Shown in pieces: positions 49,116-56,416 of a stretch of DNA of 61,640 bases; within the stretch, counting starts at the first letter, position 1; each line of letters opens with the position of its first letter. The stretch is from assembly GCA_029006345.1 (NCBI GenBank), contig JAQXGK010000075.1, positions 1 through 61,640 of the forward strand. The letters are read 5' to 3'. The notes under the pieces are model-generated. The model ran no database searches, was not told the origin of the DNA, and was given only the letters and a program-made list of their open reading frames with translations. A program made the position numbers and the translations under genes. This DNA comes from Bacillota bacterium (GTDB lineage: Bacteria; Bacillota; Clostridia; Oscillospirales; SIG627).

Positions 49116-49147
49116 GAAGCAAGCCTTGATGGCTTGCTTCTTTTTGT
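49116..49147 (+). terminator. Rho-independent terminator closing the pur-fhs operon
   Basis: GAAGCAAGCC-TTGAT-GGCTTGCTTC followed by TTTTTGTTT. Confidence 0.85.
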
Positions 49148-49295
49148 TTACCGTCTGTGTGTTTTTCCTCAGAGAAAAGCTCCTTTGCCCAGACTCGCCG
49201 AAACCTCTGTTCCGTTCCGGTTTAGCAATCCGCCTTCGGCTTTTTCGCAGCCGACGGTTTAATTACGACCGTCTGACATTACTTTATAGATATAT

Positions 49296-49970
49296 TTACT
49301 TACTGTACGCCTTGTTTCGTTCAAGTTCGAGGTACGCCCGGGCTATCTCGTTTTCAAAGCTGTTCTCGTCTTCGGTAAGCGCTATTGTGCGCAGCTTGAT
49401 TTCATAGTCTCTCAGCGCCTTCTCGCTGTCCAGCGCCAGCTTTTCCTTTTCAAGCGCCAGCTTCTTCTTTGCAGTCTCGTAGTCCCGCTCGTCGTTTTGT
49501 TCCGAGTCGCGCAGCTTCTGCAGGTCGATTCCGTGCTCGCGGTCTCTTTCAATGCCCTTGATCATTGTCTGTAAATAATCCTCGTCGCGCTTTGCCGTCT
49601 CCTCCTCCGCCTGTGCCGCGAGCGAATTTCGAGCCGCGATTTTCTCTGCCTGTAATCTGCTTTTATCGCTGATATACCATTTAGCCAGTTCTGACTGCTC
49701 GGTTGCAAGGAGTGCATTGCCGATAAGAGCGTTTTGAGCAGATTCGCCCGACCTTGACAGTCCGTCCGCCGCATATTTTTCGTTGGCGTTTTTGATTGCA
49801 AGCCTGGTGCCGGATGCCGCGGCCGTTTTCGCGTCATAATAAGGCTTGTCAAGCGCAGTTATCTGTCTGTCATAATCCGCGTCCGATTTTTCGATAAGCG
49901 CGGCATACTTTTTCAAAATCCCGTCGCTTTTCGGAGCTTTAGACGCAATAAAGCTCACTAATGTCCCCAT
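49296..49970 (-). CDS. coiled-coil protein of the phage-like operon (unknown; possibly an internal virion or tail-associated protein)
   Basis: 224 aa, rich in K/E/A heptad-like sequence. An AGGAGG SD is present. It is the last gene of the operon. Confidence 0.45.
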   Translation of the reverse strand: MGTLVSFIASKAPKSDGILKKYAALIEKSDADYDRQITALDKPYYDAKTAAASGTRLAIKNANEKYAADGLSRSGESAQNALIGNALLATEQSELAKWYISDKSRLQAEKIAARNSLAAQAEEETAKRDEDYLQTMIKGIERDREHGIDLQKLRDSEQNDERDYETAKKKLALEKEKLALDSEKALRDYEIKLRTIALTEDENSFENEIARAYLELERNKAYSK

Positions 49971-49988
49971 AAATCCGTTCCTCCTTTT

Positions 49989-51068
49989 TTACAGTCCCAC
50001 ATATTCGATTATCACAATACCGTCGCCGCCCTTTTGCGGTAAGGCTTCAACTGTTTTGGATGCCAATTTGTTGTTCAGTGTTCCGCCTGAGCCGCCGCAG
50101 CCCGCGCCGGGTGACACCTCGTTGACATTACTGCCGCCACAGCCAAACAGACTGTCTGCACCGTCCGGGCTCCCGCCCGTTTCGGATACGGCGTTGTCAT
50201 ATTTTCCGCTTTCGCCTCGTCTTTCAAGTACGGTGTCGGATACTATGTGTCCCGCACGCGACAAATCGCTTCCAGTGCCCTCTGTCACACTGACAAATCG
50301 CTTTTCGGTATTGCTGGCCCCCGGGCAGTGGATAAAGAATCCGATTTCATCCGATCCGAATACTGTCTCTTTCCCCTCGGATTCGGTATAAAGCCGCAGA
50401 TTCTGACCGTAGTATACCTTGTCGATCTCCTCACCGACAGTCAGGCTTTCGGATAAGCCCTTGCCGCCGGCACCTACGCTGATACCGGAAACCGATCCTC
50501 GTTTAAGATAAACAAAGCACTCGACGCAGCCTGCGCTCGCCCCGCCCGGACATGCGATCGACCCGGAATTGTTGTCCCCCACACTCATGGTTCCGCTGCC
50601 GCCGCCACCCGCCATTCTCACCCTGTAAATACCGTCCTTGGGCGCGGTAAATGTATATTCTCCGGCATTTTTGAATATTACAACACCGTAGTTGCTCCCA
50701 AGGGTAAGTGAATTCATAAGCTCGTTTGACAGTTGCTCCGCCGAAATTGAACCGTTGGGCAAAATACCCACCGCAGCGTCTGAAAGTGATAAATCAATGT
50801 AAGACTTGAGTGCCTTCAACTGCGCGCCGACAGTTCTCCCCTCAATGCCGTCTATCGCCGTGTGTCCGATTCTGTCAGCACCGCTCGCGTCCTCGGACGC
50901 GCTCTCAAGCTCCGGAATCAGTACAGTGTTGATATATGTCTGAATATCTACTCCCGCCTTGTCAAACAGCTCCTTGATTCTCGCCGCTGTAAATCCGTTT
51001 TCCGGCGTCGGCCTGTCCGGCATAGCCGAAATAATGCTCATGTCCTGAGTAAACTCGGTAAATTTCAT
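49989..51068 (-). CDS. tail-fibre / receptor-binding-like protein with a glycine-rich C-terminal domain
   Basis: 359 aa. The N-terminus (..PDRPTPENGFTAARIKELFDKAGVDIQTYINTVLIPELE..ADRIGH) resembles phage fibre N-termini I recall. The C-terminus has GGGGSG, GGASAG, GAGGKG and GAGCGGSGG runs. Confidence 0.5.
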   Translation of the reverse strand: MKFTEFTQDMSIISAMPDRPTPENGFTAARIKELFDKAGVDIQTYINTVLIPELESASEDASGADRIGHTAIDGIEGRTVGAQLKALKSYIDLSLSDAAVGILPNGSISAEQLSNELMNSLTLGSNYGVVIFKNAGEYTFTAPKDGIYRVRMAGGGGSGTMSVGDNNSGSIACPGGASAGCVECFVYLKRGSVSGISVGAGGKGLSESLTVGEEIDKVYYGQNLRLYTESEGKETVFGSDEIGFFIHCPGASNTEKRFVSVTEGTGSDLSRAGHIVSDTVLERRGESGKYDNAVSETGGSPDGADSLFGCGGSNVNEVSPGAGCGGSGGTLNNKLASKTVEALPQKGGDGIVIIEYVGL

Positions 51069-51085
51069 TTAAATCTTCCTTTCCG

Positions 51086-52864
51086 TTAAACCCTTTTCGA
51101 AGTAACCTCTCCCGTGAGACAGAGGCTCAGTATGCTCATACTGCTGTCCATGCCGTCGTTTTTCAGCACCAGTTTTATCTGACCGAACCGCCGCGCGTTC
51201 AGCCTTACCGTAGACATATACGCACCGCATACACTGTAAAAACTCAGTCTGTCAAATCCGATGTTAGTAAAATCGAGCGTCGAAGCAATCCCTCTCGCCT
51301 GTGCTGAACGCTTGCCGTACTGCTCCGACGAGGCGCGGTCGCTGACCCAACCGATTTCCGCCTGCGCGTCAGCGTCCGGCAAAAGCCCTATGGTCAGCGA
51401 ATATGCGTTTTTCAAATGTGCGGTGTCGCCCAATGCCGTCATATCGGATTCCCACACAGCGTTTATAGCCCTGCCGTCGTCGTTCATACCGCCGACGCGG
51501 CATATTCTGCCGTCGTCCGTTCCGAAGTACAGCTCACCTTTTTCGTCCTCGCACCAGCAGACAGCCGGAATGTCCTCATAGTAGTAGAATAAATCCAGTC
51601 GATAGTTATACACATAGCACCTTGAGCCCACCGTTACAAAAAGCTCCCCTCTTGAAGCCCTGTCAAAGACAATTGCTTGCTTTAGCTCCTCTGCCGCCAG
51701 ATATTTGTAAATCCTGTCGCTGAAGCACACGGCATTCCGCTCGTCTCGTATATTCGTTGAGGTCCATCTTATAAGTCCCTCCTCGGAAAGCGTGCACGGC
51801 GCATTATCTATCAAAACAGCCTGACCGGGCGCTATATTGCCCTTGCCCGATGACAGCGAATAGACGGGAAAGCTTGCAAAGGTTCTGCCAAGCCCGTCCT
51901 GCTTATATTCAATATATGAATAATACGCGCTGTGAGGCGTAAAGATCAGCTGTCTGTCGTAGTGACGGATAATATCGCATATTTTCTCGCCCGAGCCTAT
52001 GCCGGTCATACCGCTTTCGGTAAAATAGCAGGCGCTCGGCTGACCTTCGGCAAGCGCGGAGCAAAATCTGACCGACGGATATTCCTCATTGCCCCACAGA
52101 AATACCCTCGTATCGTTGTCGCCGCCGAAGCACATGGCATACCTGCATCCGAGAACCTTTGAAGGGTCGGCCTTCTCTCTTAACCTGTATGTAAACTCGA
52201 CGGTATCTGTTCCTGCTCCCGGCGCCTCCTTCAAAGAGAATTTGCCGCCGTTGATGAAGGAATACTGTCCGTCCGAAAGCACAGTCTCGTTGACCTTAGC
52301 GCCCAACAACTCAATGCAGTTTTTGAACATCGGAGTAAACTCAACAGTGTCACTCTCGGTATTAAAGCTCTGCCTGACAATATTTGTCAGAATGTTCATA
52401 TCCTCATACAGCGTCCCCGAACCGGTTTGGGGATCGCTCGATACGGCAATAAGCGGATAGTATGGCTCTATCGGCGCCACGGTGTCGCCGTCATATACAT
52501 ATATTGCTTCCCCCGTCAGAATATACAGCCGGCGACCGAACGGCAAAAAGCTTACCTTCGTGCCGTGTGAAATATCTCCCACACGAACCGTATCATCTCC
52601 ACTGAGTTTGAAAAGCCCGCTGTCGGACACAAAAACCGTTTCCGCCTCACCGGCAATATCTCCGGACCACATACCCGCCACCGGAGTGTCTGTGCGCATG
52701 ACAGCGGTATATCCGGCGCGCTTCTTCAGCTTGTATCCGTCAGTGATTTTCAGATTTACCATTCTCGGACTCTCGCCCGGTTTAAGCTCATCGGGTGCGC
52801 CGCTGGAATTGTGCAGACCGGTAAATTTCCCGATATATGCGCGAAAACGCGAGTTTTTATCCAT
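51086..52864 (-). CDS. large phage-like structural protein (putative tail or adsorption-apparatus protein)
   Basis: About 592 aa from the ATG at 52864, which sits 7 nt after GGGAGG. The track start at 52879 overlaps the upstream stop as TGATG. Its beta-rich repetitive character and its position between the head genes and the fibre gene suggest a tail role. Confidence 0.45.
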   Translation of the reverse strand: MDKNSRFRAYIGKFTGLHNSSGAPDELKPGESPRMVNLKITDGYKLKKRAGYTAVMRTDTPVAGMWSGDIAGEAETVFVSDSGLFKLSGDDTVRVGDISHGTKVSFLPFGRRLYILTGEAIYVYDGDTVAPIEPYYPLIAVSSDPQTGSGTLYEDMNILTNIVRQSFNTESDTVEFTPMFKNCIELLGAKVNETVLSDGQYSFINGGKFSLKEAPGAGTDTVEFTYRLREKADPSKVLGCRYAMCFGGDNDTRVFLWGNEEYPSVRFCSALAEGQPSACYFTESGMTGIGSGEKICDIIRHYDRQLIFTPHSAYYSYIEYKQDGLGRTFASFPVYSLSSGKGNIAPGQAVLIDNAPCTLSEEGLIRWTSTNIRDERNAVCFSDRIYKYLAAEELKQAIVFDRASRGELFVTVGSRCYVYNYRLDLFYYYEDIPAVCWCEDEKGELYFGTDDGRICRVGGMNDDGRAINAVWESDMTALGDTAHLKNAYSLTIGLLPDADAQAEIGWVSDRASSEQYGKRSAQARGIASTLDFTNIGFDRLSFYSVCGAYMSTVRLNARRFGQIKLVLKNDGMDSSMSILSLCLTGEVTSKRV

Positions 52865-52878
52865 CCCGATGCCTCCCA

Positions 52879-53280
52879 TCAGTAAACCTCCGTCACCTTG
52901 TGCCGCACGACGGGTCTGAATCTGTACCTCAGCGAATTCATTTCTCTTATAAACATATCGTAAAATACCTGGGCTCTCTCCGGGCTCTCCTCAAGCAATA
53001 AAAGATAGCATAATGCATACGGAATAACACCCATGCAGATGTACGGGTGCTGTCCCAGCTCGTCGTCAAGCGACTTTATCTGATGCGGCAAATGCTCGTT
53101 TATACCGAAAGCTAAGCCTTTGACCGTACAGTCCAGCTCGTCGGTCATAACCGCAGCAAGATTGATAAGCGCAGGTGCGTTTCGCTCAAATGCCGCCGTG
53201 TCGTACTGCCACTCGTCACCGACAGCCGCCTTCTCCCCTATCAGCACGAGCGCTCTGTCGTATATTTCTCTTCCCGTCAT
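52879..53280 (-). CDS. small phage-like protein (possible head-tail adaptor)
   Basis: 133 aa, directly downstream of the capsid gene. Function is inferred from position only. Confidence 0.35.
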   Translation of the reverse strand: MTGREIYDRALVLIGEKAAVGDEWQYDTAAFERNAPALINLAAVMTDELDCTVKGLAFGINEHLPHQIKSLDDELGQHPYICMGVIPYALCYLLLLEESPERAQVFYDMFIREMNSLRYRFRPVVRHKVTEVY

Positions 53281-53337
53281 ATCGTTTCCTTTCTTAAAAA
53301 ACGGGGGAATGCTTACATTCCCCCGTAAAACATATTC

Positions 53338-54174
53338 TTATATTGCCGTCTCGGCAACGGGAGTGATGTTGAGTACTACCATCTCCTTGGGGTAAAGAAT
53401 TTTCGCACCGTAGAGATGAAGTCCCTTGACCGCGTCACCGTGACGAAGCTCGGGCTCGTAAGCCTTTACCGAGTTGACCTGTTCGGCAAACGCGATAGCG
53501 CGCGAGGTTCTTGCTATACATCTGTACGAACCGTTCTCGGCTGCCGTAATATTGTTTGTTACATATATATCAAAGCCCATGAAACTGCCGATATAGCCTC
53601 TTCCGAGCTCTTCGGCGTTGTCGGTGGAACGAAGTACCTTAGCCAGCACCAGCTTCTGCTCGACCGCAGGCGAAACCTCAAGGGAGATTTTTGCGGAATT
53701 AGGTACGTTGTTCTCCATCAGCTTTCTGCGAGCGTCGGAAATGGTATTGATTATGCTGACGCTGTCGGCGGCTTCATTTGTCAGCTCCTCGACATCGGGG
53801 TCGGTCAAGCTGTAAATATAGCGGTCCGCAACATCAGCAAGCGCGTCCGAAGCCTCCTTCATTGCCGCCGTCATAATGTTCTTCTTGGACTGTGCCGCAT
53901 CTACATCGTCAAGGCAGAAGTTAAATCCCTTAGCCTGATCGATGATGAGCGTTCTCTCAACATCGCTCAGCACCTCAGCCGCCGGCATATCGGTGTTCTT
54001 TGTGTAGTCAAATATGGTCACCGGGCCGATGCCGCATATCTTGACTCTGTCGCCCTCGCCCTTGATAACGCCCTCAAATTCACGGTTGGAGAGCTTGACG
54101 GCAACATAGTTCTTTTCCAGCTCCTTGTAAAGAGTTTCACTCCAGAGAGTGGGGATAAAATTAGTAATAGCCAT
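53338..54174 (-). CDS. major capsid protein, small P22-coat-like / HK97-fold type
   Basis: 278 aa. N-terminal NFIPTLWSETLYKEL... followed by GDRVKI resembles the FIPEIWS start of P22-coat-family capsid proteins. It lies after a scaffold-like gene. Confidence 0.7.
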   Translation of the reverse strand: MAITNFIPTLWSETLYKELEKNYVAVKLSNREFEGVIKGEGDRVKICGIGPVTIFDYTKNTDMPAAEVLSDVERTLIIDQAKGFNFCLDDVDAAQSKKNIMTAAMKEASDALADVADRYIYSLTDPDVEELTNEAADSVSIINTISDARRKLMENNVPNSAKISLEVSPAVEQKLVLAKVLRSTDNAEELGRGYIGSFMGFDIYVTNNITAAENGSYRCIARTSRAIAFAEQVNSVKAYEPELRHGDAVKGLHLYGAKILYPKEMVVLNITPVAETAI

Positions 54175-54242
54175 TTTGTTTTTCCTTTCTTGTCCTTTTT
54201 GTCGTTTTCTTTATCTGAATAAAGCCGTATTTTCACGCCTTA

Positions 54243-54749
54243 TCATCGGTTCCAGCTTGCCATGGATGCGATTATCGCGTCATAGTTTTTTCTCACCTCG
54301 GCCGCGCTCATGTTCCTTACGGCTTCGGGAGAAAAGTATGCCTTGGCGGAATTGCCGCCCTTGAGCTTAGGCGGTGCCTTTTTGGCAGTCTCACCGCTTG
54401 CCTTCTTGCTCTTTCCGTCGTCCCTGACACATTTGATAAAGTAGAGCGCATAGCTTGCGGCAAGAGATTCGCCGTTTCCGACTCTTTCCCAAACCTCATC
54501 GGGAATCTCCGACTCGGAAACGCGCGGGAACAGCTCTCGGAATTGCTTAATATCCTCCTTTATTTTTTCGTCCTCCGCGCCGTCGTCCAGAGCTTCGGCG
54601 CTTTCCGCCTCCTCGTAAGCATTCCCGGAGATTTTCTCCTCCTGTTCGCTTTCCTCGTCTGATTGCACTTCTTGCTCGGGACTCTCCCGCTCATCCGCGA
54701 CAAGCAGATATTTTTCGCGTTCGTCCAAAACCTTGTTTCCTTTCTTCAT
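54243..54749 (-). CDS. scaffolding-like protein (acidic, helical)
   Basis: 168 aa with a very acidic N-terminal half (EESEQEEK.., EEAESAEALDDGAEDEK) and a basic helical C-terminus. It lies between the portal and capsid genes. Confidence 0.5.
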   Translation of the reverse strand: MKKGNKVLDEREKYLLVADERESPEQEVQSDEESEQEEKISGNAYEEAESAEALDDGAEDEKIKEDIKQFRELFPRVSESEIPDEVWERVGNGESLAASYALYFIKCVRDDGKSKKASGETAKKAPPKLKGGNSAKAYFSPEAVRNMSAAEVRKNYDAIIASMASWNR

Positions 54750-54779
54750 AACTGCTTTCCTTTCTTTTTAGCGTTCTGT

Positions 54780-56327
54780 TCAGCCGTTTTCGGCCGCTTT
54801 CTTGATTTCGGAAATCAACTCCGCTTTTTTGGGTATATATCCGTCAGGGAGCCGTTCCAAATACTGAGTCAGCGTAATGGCTCCTTTGGCCAGCAGATTA
54901 TCAAGCGTCGATACACAAGCGATCTCGCTCCAGTATGCGCTTTCACCCACCTCTACATTGCACTGAAACAGCGTGTTGCAAATACCCGTAAGCCCGAGAA
55001 GCTCCGCCCTCGGCTGGTCATTCTCTCTGAAAAACAACAGCCTCGAGCTGTCGTAATAGCATAGCATGAAATCAAGCCATATAAGCCCGAGCTTTTCAAA
55101 GAATCGCCTGATACCGCGCTTTTGGTTTTCAAGCGGCAGGTTGGATGCCTGCTGTAATGCAACTATCGCTGAGGTGTTGTCGGGGCGCACATTTCCCAGC
55201 GCCGCGTCAGTTGCACCCATAAGCTCCTTTGTAAAGGCTATGGTAAGATTGATAACATCTAGATATCCGCTCTGCAGGCTTCCCGGCCCTATTACCTTTG
55301 CGGCATTTTCTACAGGTCCGGCCACGGCGATTGCCTCCCCCACAGCATTGGTCCAGTCGTCGATAATGTTGGAATTGTACATCACCTTTGAGAATGACAT
55401 GTCTATCATATGCTTCATGACCATTCCGAAAGCTCTGTTTATGTAGTTCTGATTTGGGGTCAGTCCGGTTGCCACAGCCTGTCCGTGATAGCTGTTCTTC
55501 ACTCTGTCCCAATTCATAAACGCCACGGGATAGTACCGAAGCCCGGTATCGGTTTCGGGACAAATCACAGCGCCCCTAACGCTCTTTCTGAAGTGAACGG
55601 TACCGTTTTTGCGGAACAGCTTGATTACATATTCGCTCTTTGTACTGTCAAGCTCCTTACTGCCGTAATCGCCCGAGCAGTAATTGTTGTCGTCGTCCGG
55701 TATTATTTTTTCAAGCTCGTCCTTTGTCGCGCCGTTCTCGGCGGCTTCCGTCCTCAGTCTTTCGGTAAGCTCCCTTCCCGACAGAAGGATATACGGCTGA
55801 TCCTCGACCTCCGGCGTATTTACGTCGCCGAAGAATATGTCGGTGGAATCAATTAGCATAGTAGCAAAATCGCCCTTGTATCCCTGCGCCGTCGTTTTGT
55901 TCTCGTCCCAGTAGACATACATCGCCATATCGCCGGATATAGCCGCCCCCAGCAAGCCGTCGCTCAAAAGTCCGCGAATATTATCTCTGTCCATACGGTA
56001 GTTCAGGTAGCTGGATACCGTGCGGCAGGCGTCGTCGATTCGCTTTCTCTCCTCGCTGTCAAATAGGTATTTCACACCCTCGGCGCTTATATTGAGACTG
56101 AGCCTCTGCGACTGAATAGACGAAAGATAGAAGTTGATTATTCTTTTGAATAAATTGAATACCGGCTTCGGCAAATCGTTTGCCGTCCCGGAATCCCATT
56201 GGTCGCCGCGGTAATAACGCTCATTTTTATTGACCGTCTCATAGTGTCCTATCAGCCTGTTGTACTCGCGTCCCCTTTCAAGCAGCTCAAAATCCTCGCT
56301 TGCGCAATCACTGTATTTTTTATGCAC
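54780..56327 (-). CDS. phage portal protein
   Basis: 515 aa. N-terminal NERYYRGDQWD motif. C-terminal ...IVALQQASNLPLENQK.. tunnel-like segment. GTG start 10 nt after AGGAGG. Confidence 0.75.
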   Translation of the reverse strand: MHKKYSDCASEDFELLERGREYNRLIGHYETVNKNERYYRGDQWDSGTANDLPKPVFNLFKRIINFYLSSIQSQRLSLNISAEGVKYLFDSEERKRIDDACRTVSSYLNYRMDRDNIRGLLSDGLLGAAISGDMAMYVYWDENKTTAQGYKGDFATMLIDSTDIFFGDVNTPEVEDQPYILLSGRELTERLRTEAAENGATKDELEKIIPDDDNNYCSGDYGSKELDSTKSEYVIKLFRKNGTVHFRKSVRGAVICPETDTGLRYYPVAFMNWDRVKNSYHGQAVATGLTPNQNYINRAFGMVMKHMIDMSFSKVMYNSNIIDDWTNAVGEAIAVAGPVENAAKVIGPGSLQSGYLDVINLTIAFTKELMGATDAALGNVRPDNTSAIVALQQASNLPLENQKRGIRRFFEKLGLIWLDFMLCYYDSSRLLFFRENDQPRAELLGLTGICNTLFQCNVEVGESAYWSEIACVSTLDNLLAKGAITLTQYLERLPDGYIPKKAELISEIKKAAENG

Positions 56328-56358
56328 TCGCTTTTGACCTCCTTTTTTGTTTGAGCAA

Positions 56359-56388
56359 ATTATATTTCACAAGTGAGGTGACATACAA
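56359..56388 (-). promoter_or_regulatory. candidate sigma-A promoter directly upstream of the portal gene (TTGTAT-18-TATAAT)
   Basis: On the minus strand, -35 is at 56388-56383 and -10 at 56364-56359. It is followed by an AAAAAGGAGG SD and the GTG start. Confidence 0.4.
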
Positions 56389-56416
56389 TGACATTTGCCG
56401 AGTTTCCGATTGGTCG

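Follow-up and report, generated by a model that had tools for sequence, protein, structure and literature searches.

The subject of this report is an operon of seven phage-like genes on the minus strand (56327-49296) of a 61,640-nt stretch of DNA, referred to throughout as the window, from an Oscillospirales bacterium (contig JAQXGK010000075.1, assembly GCA_029006345.1). The operon is probably the structural locus, for a head and a short tail, of a domesticated, vertically inherited, podovirus-derived, multi-locus system resembling a gene transfer agent (GTA). This reading is drawn because the module is fixed in approximately 47 genomes, co-diverges with its host neighbours, is under purifying selection, and is accompanied in relatives by orphan terminase genes (TerS and TerL) under the same promoter element. 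As in a GTA, the particle genes are chromosomal (portal, major capsid protein (MCP) and nozzle confirmed, the rest assigned by position), genes for self-propagation are lacking, in relatives the loci are dispersed and carry a common promoter element, and inheritance is vertical under purifying selection; that the particles package and transfer DNA is something we infer from the genes. An earlier note on this DNA, made without database searches and referred to here as the sequence-only reading, had listed a domesticated GTA-like system with packaging functions elsewhere among its candidates, and the conservation, co-divergence and orphan terminase of relatives support that candidate.

The operon consists of seven uninterrupted open reading frames (ORFs), at the positions first reported for them, which encode a portal, a putative scaffold, an MCP, a small adaptor-like protein, a podovirus tail nozzle, a fibre and a coiled-coil protein. 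The portal (54780-56327, minus strand) is a 515 aa protein with a GTG start at 56327 and an AGGAGG Shine-Dalgarno (SD) sequence at 56343-56338; it contains the sequence NERYYRGDQWD, matches PF16510 (P22_portal; 3e-13) and phrog_156 (9e-31) in profile searches, and is 55-62% identical to the portals of the related Type A and Type B loci described below. The MCP (53338-54174, minus strand; MAITNFIPTLWS) is a 278 aa protein with an HK97 fold, assigned to the PF25209 family; profile searches match it to PF25209 (4e-12), phrog_267 (4e-44) and the MCP of PDB entry 8e16 (1.5e-31). The portal and small HK97-like capsid recognized in the sequence-only reading are upheld by Pfam and PHROG profiles, and the capsid also by the PDB. 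Between the two lies an acidic 168 aa protein (54243-54749, minus strand), which has no family match in profile searches and is the putative scaffolding protein on the basis of position and composition; this slot between portal and MCP is kept in all loci.

The protein p597 (51086-52879, minus strand) is 597 aa in length, or 592 aa when counted from the second Met, and is without useful sequence annotation; its predicted structure has the P22 gp10/T7 gp12 fold of a podovirus tail nozzle or hub protein. An alignment-based AlphaFold model (pLDDT 89.9, pTM 0.88) compared with the PDB by Foldseek matches 29 podophage nozzle or hub chains with E-values of 4e-20 to 4e-11, including those of Pa223, SU10, P22 gp10 (8eap_D), Sf6 gp8 and T7 gp12; P22 gp10 and Sf6 gp8 are matched at 7e-15 to 4e-13, and matches among viral models (BFVD) carry the label 'P22 Gp10 DNA-stabilising'. 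Due to this match of the model to podovirus nozzles, the short tail proposed earlier is a sound inference.

The remaining three proteins are assigned largely by position. The 133 aa protein p133 (52879-53280, minus strand) is a probable head-tail adaptor or head-completion protein, as its location agrees with that of P22 gp4; its gene adjoins the nozzle gene in all Type A and Type B loci, and it is distantly homologous to the protein that follows the MCP in Type C loci (hidden Markov model (HMM) cross-matches of 1.7e-6 and 2e-4; hhalign 82%). phmmer and profile searches with p133 gave no PDB or Pfam match, and its single-sequence structure model is poor (pLDDT 46). The fibre or receptor-binding-like protein p359 (49989-51068, minus strand; cluster c6) has 359 aa and a Gly-rich C-terminus; its matches to the tail-fibre families phrog_14469, phrog_863 and phrog_6202 at 1e-6 to 7e-8 agree with the fibre-like character first ascribed to it. 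It is optional in the module family: every Type B locus has it, as do some of the Type A loci. The last gene encodes the 224 aa coiled-coil protein p224 (49296-49970, minus strand; cluster c4), a candidate tail needle or plug, as suggested by a location matching that of P22 gp26, or alternatively a candidate internal protein. A c4 gene is the last in both Type A and Type B modules; p224 retains the conserved N-terminal motif GLSxSGES, and profile searches that included PDB sequences gave no Pfam or PDB match for it or its cluster.

Profile searches find no terminase, integrase, protease, holin or endolysin in the operon, in agreement with the sequence-only reading, and HMMs built from relatives detect no TerL-, TerS-, holin- or M15-like ORF in the 61.6-kb window. 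Neither the operon nor its flanks in the window contain genes for its own replication, integration, excision or autonomous propagation, and none recur in the approximately 47 related loci. Likewise, no att-like direct repeats bracketing the module are found in the window, in line with the sequence-only reading, which had noted none beyond 8 nt.

The MCP has 2446 homologs; the best 120 are 67-84% identical and come from contigs of Clostridia/Oscillospiraceae that reach 154 kb in length. When one genome of each bacterial species was scanned, 76 loci were recovered, the neighbouring ORFs of which were clustered. Approximately 47 species-level genomes of uncultured Oscillospiraceae/Clostridia carry portal, scaffold, MCP, p133 and p597 genes in two gene orders, Type A or Type B; each genome has one copy, and all of these modules sit among housekeeping genes. 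No integrase lies near any of the approximately 47, and a terminase is found within 10 kb only in L039. Type A, to which the window belongs (MCP 68-83% identical), is arranged as portal, scaffold, MCP, an optional holin, p133, nozzle, an optional fibre and the coiled-coil protein; a Phage_holin_4_1 holin (PF05105, 2e-19) occupies the place between MCP and p133 in five loci (L024, L026, L029, L034 and L035). Type B (MCP 61-70% identical) is arranged as a small membrane protein, portal, p133, nozzle, scaffold, MCP, fibre, M15 peptidase and coiled-coil protein, the M15 peptidase (c11; PF08291, 3e-11) being present in all loci; the window has neither the holin nor the M15 peptidase. Type C (MCP 45-58%, portal 38% identical) has TerS-like, TerL, portal, scaffold, MCP and a small protein related to p133, and no tail genes. 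A fourth arrangement is seen on short IMG/VR contigs (L098 3136-10101; L094-L096, L099 and L100) with MCPs 42-53% identical; here the order is TerS-like, TerL, nozzle, portal, scaffold, MCP and an adaptor-like protein, the nozzle gene being upstream of the portal gene.

The module is inherited vertically and under purifying selection, and it co-diverges with its host neighbours. Within sublineages the flanking genes are conserved: Type B modules lie between a GntR/ABC operon and a GH94 gene, and in one Type A group the module is preceded by three trigger-factor-like genes, LysR and YitT and followed by RNase H and mnmA. Identity of the module proteins tracks that of the flanking proteins, with Spearman correlations of 0.7-0.94 in Type B and of 0.8-0.9 against the YitT-family neighbour in Type A; the Type A correlation is weaker for other neighbours, partly as the MCP hardly varies, averaging 85% identity where the adjacent MnmA has 59%. 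In L043 and L044 the whole Type B module is inverted relative to the conserved flanks, as compared to L002, L038 and L046.

A strain-level copy (L089; 97.9% nucleotide identity) occupies the same site between fhs and the dehydrogenase gene, with seven of seven genes intact and of identical length. Inspection of this junction had been proposed in the sequence-only reading; the only strain-level relative has the same complete module there, rather than a full prophage or an empty site, and a look-up of the exact flanking dehydrogenase protein returned no record. The proposed calculation of the ratio of nonsynonymous to synonymous substitution rates (dN/dS) for this pair likewise gives values of 0-0.47, which are purifying and not neutral: 0 for p133, 0.023 for the MCP, 0.066 for the portal, 0.13 for the nozzle, 0.26 for the scaffold, 0.28 for p224 and 0.47, the highest in the operon, for the fibre, with 0.05 for the neighbouring dehydrogenase. 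Among the 106 nucleotide differences between the two strains, 32 change an amino acid (binomial p = 4e-22 against a rough neutral expectation of 75%). For deeper pairs, which are near saturation, median dN/dS ranges from 0.16 (MCP) to 0.53.

These results bear directly on the possibility that the operon has survived by chance, either as the decaying remains of a prophage or as what a recent deletion left of a small podovirus prophage. A free podophage-like contig of approximately 41 kb (L168) does have the same gene order with approximately 42% MCP identity, and p224 is shorter than the rest of its family; however, the same six to seven genes are intact in approximately 47 species-level genomes, dN/dS stays far below 1 whether divergence is shallow or deep, the MCP is more conserved than the adjacent MnmA, the promoter is conserved, and a full prophage is seen at none of the related sites. 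Chance survival of a remnant is thus extremely improbable, and the conserved architecture is too widespread and too old for the recent deletion derivative put forward in the sequence-only reading, which is rejected.

In relatives, the packaging genes are intact and conserved, and are not linked to the operon for head and tail; an orphan TerL is seen in four related genomes. One Type A locus is matched by an HMM built from Type C terminases, and a longer stretch of its contig (L085) shows a full-length TerL 5.7 kb from the operon, between opposite-strand thiT/TPK and queG. Searching with the L085 TerL returns more than 100 homologous clusters at 60-92% identity, four of which (L086, L087, L170 and L088) were inspected for genomic context. 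The L086 TerL is approximately 87 kb from the Type A module L027 on the same 298,762-nt contig; the L087 TerL is on another contig of the metagenome-assembled genome (MAG) that holds module L017; the L170 TerS-TerL pair is on another contig of the MAG that holds the Type B module L041; and L088 has the same terminase context as L170. TerL is highly conserved and full-length, with both ATPase and nuclease regions. The TerS-like protein has 129-131 aa and matches PF16677 (the P22-gp3 family; 2.6e-6) and phrog_606 (5e-6).

The two terminase genes are placed differently in two lineages: in the ThiT/QueG lineage (L085 16341-19570, L086 4125-7371, L087 4133-7368) the TerS-like gene is just beyond two thiamine genes from TerL, and in the second lineage it adjoins TerL. 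The intervening pair, opposite-strand thiamine pyrophosphokinase (TPK) and ThiT/YuaJ, are genuine host genes with their own thiamine pyrophosphate riboswitch (RF00059; L085 18047-18150, L086 5855-5950), only approximately 50 nt from the start of TerL. Immediately downstream of the Type B-lineage TerS-TerL genes are a large serine recombinase of 443-445 aa (Resolvase/Recombinase/Zn_ribbon_recom) and a highly conserved 136 aa P-loop protein (L088 7549-9399; L170 and L171 8617-10472).

A promoter element, TGTCATTGnnTGTCAG, precedes both the head-tail operon and the TerS-like gene in relatives, and this common element links the head-tail and terminase loci as a probable regulon. In the window the element (CAAATGTCATTGTATGTCACCTCA) lies at 56374-56397 on the minus strand, with a TGTCA-N5-TGTCA core at 56393-56379; within it is a -35-like TTGTAT (56383-56388, minus strand), which is followed 18 nt downstream by the -10 hexamer TATAAT (56359-56364, minus strand), so the TTGTAT-18-TATAAT promoter described from the sequence is present. 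Aligned DNA upstream of the portal genes gives the consensus TGTCATTGnnTG(T/G)CAG, then a TAnAAT-like -10 after approximately 13-17 nt; the TTGnnT within the conserved element is the '-35' of the sequence-only reading, 18 nt from the -10, and in most related loci the corresponding position holds a TAnAAT-like hexamer. In approximately 3 Mb scanned, the pattern was matched 55 times versus approximately 6 expected (our own estimate from base frequencies); it is found upstream of the module in approximately 50 loci, and nearly all copies are single in their Type A or B locus, on the operon strand and just upstream of the first module gene. By weight matrix the only site in the window scoring above 14 is 56397-56374 (22.0).

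All five distinct terminase loci have the element upstream of the TerS-like gene: it is directly upstream by weight matrix in L085, L086, L087 and L088, and the L170 copy has a single mismatch and retains the TTGTAT-18-TATAAT arrangement. Copies on the TerS side depart from the consensus. A sporulation-sigma or extracytoplasmic function (ECF)-type promoter was considered and rejected, as, by comparison with consensus sequences, the -10 resembles that of sigma-A promoters and the TTGnnT, at 18 nt, fits a -35. The divergent GntR gene beside Type B modules was set aside as a candidate regulator; it is absent from Type A loci.

Further copies and alternatives of the element are seen in individual loci. 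In L045 (13790-14495) a second copy (score 30.3) is located just downstream of the Type B module and drives a protein with a DnaD-like/replisome-organiser winged-helix N-terminus (phrog_2514, 1.4e-27); this protein may be another member of the regulon or its regulator. In L030 (9356-15266; Type A) the element is directly before the scaffold gene, and no portal is present in the operon or within 10 kb; it has been either lost or relocated. Type C modules do not contain the TGTCA-repeat element of Types A and B by weight-matrix scan; a Firmicutes LexA/Cheo box (CGAACAAATGTTCG or a closely similar sequence) is found instead, a short distance before the first gene of the module, the TerS-like c15 gene (L048, L049, L052, L054, L056, L057, L063, L064, L067, L070 and L073), and these modules look SOS-inducible.

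The terminase loci and their promoters also bear on the possibility that the module belongs to a capsid- and tail-forming phage satellite or other mobile element that borrows the terminase and replication of a helper. Such a satellite would account for the different chromosomal sites of the module in different sublineages and for the lack of a terminase in cis, and capsid-forming satellites are known in other bacteria; however, integrase, excisionase, replication or primase genes and att repeats are missing from the window and from the approximately 47 related loci, the flanks are conserved and co-diverge with the module, each genome has one copy, and the cognate terminase is itself chromosomal, among host genes, and carries the promoter element of the module. 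A satellite, one of the candidates of the sequence-only reading, is therefore disfavoured by the missing integrase, replication genes and att sites and by the conserved host synteny, and we consider it very unlikely.

The proposed GTA-like system would operate as follows. A host-encoded regulator would act at TGTCA-N5-TGTCA, overlapping the -35, to switch on both loci together, and procapsids would assemble from portal, scaffold and MCP. The unlinked terminase, which in the genome of the window would be encoded outside the 61.6 kb, would then package DNA, most likely that of the host and by the headful route. The particle would be closed and armed, and its short tail completed, by p133, the nozzle, the fibre and, in the needle position, the coiled-coil protein. 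Release would be by lysis, for which genes are present in cis in some relatives (holin, M15 peptidase) and would lie elsewhere in the genome of the window.

The same multi-locus genes could instead make a domesticated particle with a role other than transfer, such as a PBSX-like killer or bacteriocin, a lysis or DNA-release device, or a decoy. All of the evidence for domestication applies equally to such a particle, the fast-evolving fibre and nozzle fit the targeting of competitors, and the sister Type C modules carry a LexA box, as do SOS-induced defective phages; killing and transfer appear inseparable by sequence. Against this, a full-length, conserved TerL with ATPase and nuclease regions, together with TerS, implies that DNA packaging matters, and published virus-like particle data show packaging of host DNA of discrete size in these bacterial families; a non-transfer role is therefore held to be unlikely.

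Several observations weigh against the GTA-like system proposed here. For the window's own genome, no terminase, TerS or lysis gene is seen in the 61.6 kb covered, and all carriers of the module are uncultured MAGs. In the ThiT/QueG lineage no copy of the element is seen before TerL, which two opposite-strand host genes split from the TerS promoter. The module occupies different sites in different sublineages, for which mobility, and not rearrangement, could be responsible, although genes for mobility are not seen. Tail proteins are 30-45% identical where MCPs are approximately 80% identical, which fits diversifying or relaxed evolution, or exchange. Although GC content (0.513 for the module versus 0.521 for host genes) and GC at third codon positions (0.601 versus 0.615) are as similar to the flanks as the sequence-only reading had judged composition to be, codon usage is only similar and less host-like, the correlation of relative synonymous codon usage being 0.73 between module and host versus 0.96 among host genes. 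The claim of intact genes stands in that every ORF is uninterrupted, and is qualified for p224, the shortest complete member of a family of otherwise 244-370 aa: it is without the last approximately 38 profile positions, including the C-terminal motif YRxExxLYAxALGYL. A frameshifted remnant of this C-terminus is not found downstream of the gene, and the L089 homologue has the identical length of 224 aa.

GTAs have been recognized in very few lineages, and before 2024-2026 gut commensals were not known to have any. FpGTA of Faecalibacterium prausnitzii is a verified podovirus-like, two-locus GTA, with particles of approximately 40 nm that carry approximately 8.5-kb host DNA (Borodovich et al., Nat Commun 2026; PMC12946183). 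Its operon I (10.5 kb) encodes TerS, TerL, portal, scaffold, capsid and short-tail proteins, and a second operon (5.5 kb) contains fibre and lysis genes (PMC12946183). The capsid is labelled as N4-gp56 family, and a gene for a Prp-like protease is located between portal and MCP (PMC12946183, Supplementary Data 2). GTA-like packaging is reported as common in Ruminococcaceae, Oscillospiraceae and Christensenellaceae, with FpGTA itself only in Faecalibacterium (PMC12946183).

The comparison of the present system to FpGTA rests on annotation and architecture rather than on sequence alignment. Both are podovirus-like, belong to gut anaerobes of related orders, have genes spread over more than one chromosomal locus and lack replication and integration genes; in both the main operon runs from portal through capsid and short-tail proteins to a coiled-coil end, the coiled-coil protein of FpGTA (annotated as 'TolA') being abundant in particles, and lysis and fibre genes can lie in a second locus. 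The two differ in that TerS and TerL of FpGTA are upstream of the portal in operon I, whereas here neither operon nor window has them and in relatives they form a separate locus among housekeeping genes; by annotation, FpGTA also has an N4-gp56 capsid and a Prp-like protease, whereas here the MCP is of the PF25209 family and the slot of the protease, which is lacking, holds the scaffold. A named Faecalibacterium protein appears neither among the best 120 MCP homologs nor in a representative-library search or one cluster look-up. The present system apparently works like FpGTA and is not a member of the FpGTA family, being set apart by annotation.

A search of one literature library found no published description of the present module family. 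The sequence-only reading had recognized no described system with this architecture; FpGTA, now described as a two-locus podovirus-like GTA, overtakes that statement in part, and the remainder holds, as the terminase of FpGTA is in its main operon and its capsid family differs by annotation. The system is probably one of the GTA kind, distinct from FpGTA by annotation and architecture. More tentatively, it may represent an old GTA family of uncultured Oscillospirales and related Clostridia, with a capsid unrelated to that of FpGTA, a gene set split between head-tail, TerS, TerL and lysis loci, and a TGTCA-N5-TGTCA regulon with a dedicated regulator; if true, this would provide the genetic basis of some of the GTA-like packaging in those Oscillospiraceae, Ruminococcaceae or Christensenellaceae that are without FpGTA. 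Sequencing of virus-like particles suggests that such packaging is widespread in Oscillospiraceae and Ruminococcaceae, but a locus has been identified only in Faecalibacterium, and the module is a concrete and widespread candidate gene set. The combination of a terminase-less head-tail operon with orphan TerS/TerL is a diagnostic architecture, and the promoter signature offers a means of finding the regulon and its regulator; elements of this type escape prophage and GTA finders because no single locus looks complete.

RcGTA-type GTAs of Alphaproteobacteria are siphovirus-like, with a protease-processed capsid and a terminase kept in the head-tail cluster. They resemble the present system in having multiple loci, vertical inheritance, purifying selection, no self-propagation genes and host co-regulation of dispersed loci; the present system differs in being podovirus-like and scaffold-dependent, with an unlinked terminase, in a different phylum and with different promoter logic.

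The virion module of P22 has the order gp1-gp8-gp5-gp4-gp10-gp26, which encode portal, scaffold, coat, small adaptor, hub/nozzle and coiled-coil protein. The operon has this same order, a portal of the P22_portal Pfam family and a nozzle fold matching gp10 and Sf6 gp8; for a gp4-like adaptor and a gp26-like needle the gene position agrees, with no sequence or profile match to solved structures. Unlike P22, the operon does not have terminase genes ahead of the portal, and ejection proteins, a tailspike, and lysis and regulatory genes are also missing; the module is fixed in the chromosome rather than being within a phage genome.

Capsid-forming phage-inducible chromosomal islands (cf-PICIs) are likewise small chromosomal clusters with portal and capsid genes and little else that is phage-like; by published description, however, they have integrase, replication and terminase genes and no tails, whereas the present module has tail genes and none of the others. 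Tailocins differ in having tail genes without capsid or portal, both of which are present here. Type C modules, from Lachnospiraceae/Eubacteriales MAGs, share homologous portal (38%), MCP (45-58%), scaffold and adaptor-like proteins and the same TerL family, and are also located between conserved host genes; they differ in having the terminase in cis, no tail genes, and the LexA box in place of the TGTCA-repeat element.

In IMG/VR, MCPs at least 67% identical to that of the window occur only on fragments of 5-10 kb, and phage-sized contigs (36-42 kb) only at 42% identity or less. The free contig L168 encodes its own terminase, exonuclease and glycosyltransferases, and has portal, scaffold, MCP, p133-like, nozzle, fibre-like and c4-like genes in the order of the window. 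The module descends from a podovirus lineage of P22 architecture, with no close free phage in evidence; free podophage, Type D, Type C and Types A and B form a natural series in which a phage late operon is dismantled during domestication. GenBank entry MT836592.1 (L008; 9588 nt, 'Bacteriophage sp.', human faeces) was considered as a mini-genome and rejected as an ordinary fragment of a related phage; this unannotated sequence contains a TerL of the orphan family (HMM E-value 1e-215), a portal, an MCP 40% identical to that of the window and a weak nozzle match. The elements of a preprint on 'small viruses/encapsulin' are not relevant, as they are without portal and tail.

Directly after the MCP stop is a GC-rich hairpin (53291-53326, minus strand), with seven G-C pairs in its 11-bp stem and T6 behind it; an equivalent hairpin comes after the MCP in every Type B locus and in those Type A loci that bear a holin. 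It is probably a partial terminator or attenuator, which would set the ratio of capsid to tail expression with capsid above tail. A bidirectional hairpin (49116-49140) separates the end of the operon from fhs and lies 156 nt past the stop codon of p224; it is the fhs terminator and possibly also that of the operon. A plus-strand ORF of 268 aa (53416-54222) is antisense to the MCP, and many related loci have antisense ORFs of this kind; rather than a gene, it is most likely a side effect of codon bias. Spacings between genes along the operon are 30, 68, 57, -1, 17 and 18 nt, the overlap being the TGATG at 52879 noted previously. SD sequences had been described as AGGAGG/GGGAGG-type throughout, which holds for the three genes with GGAGG-type sites; the other four have AAGGA-type sites.

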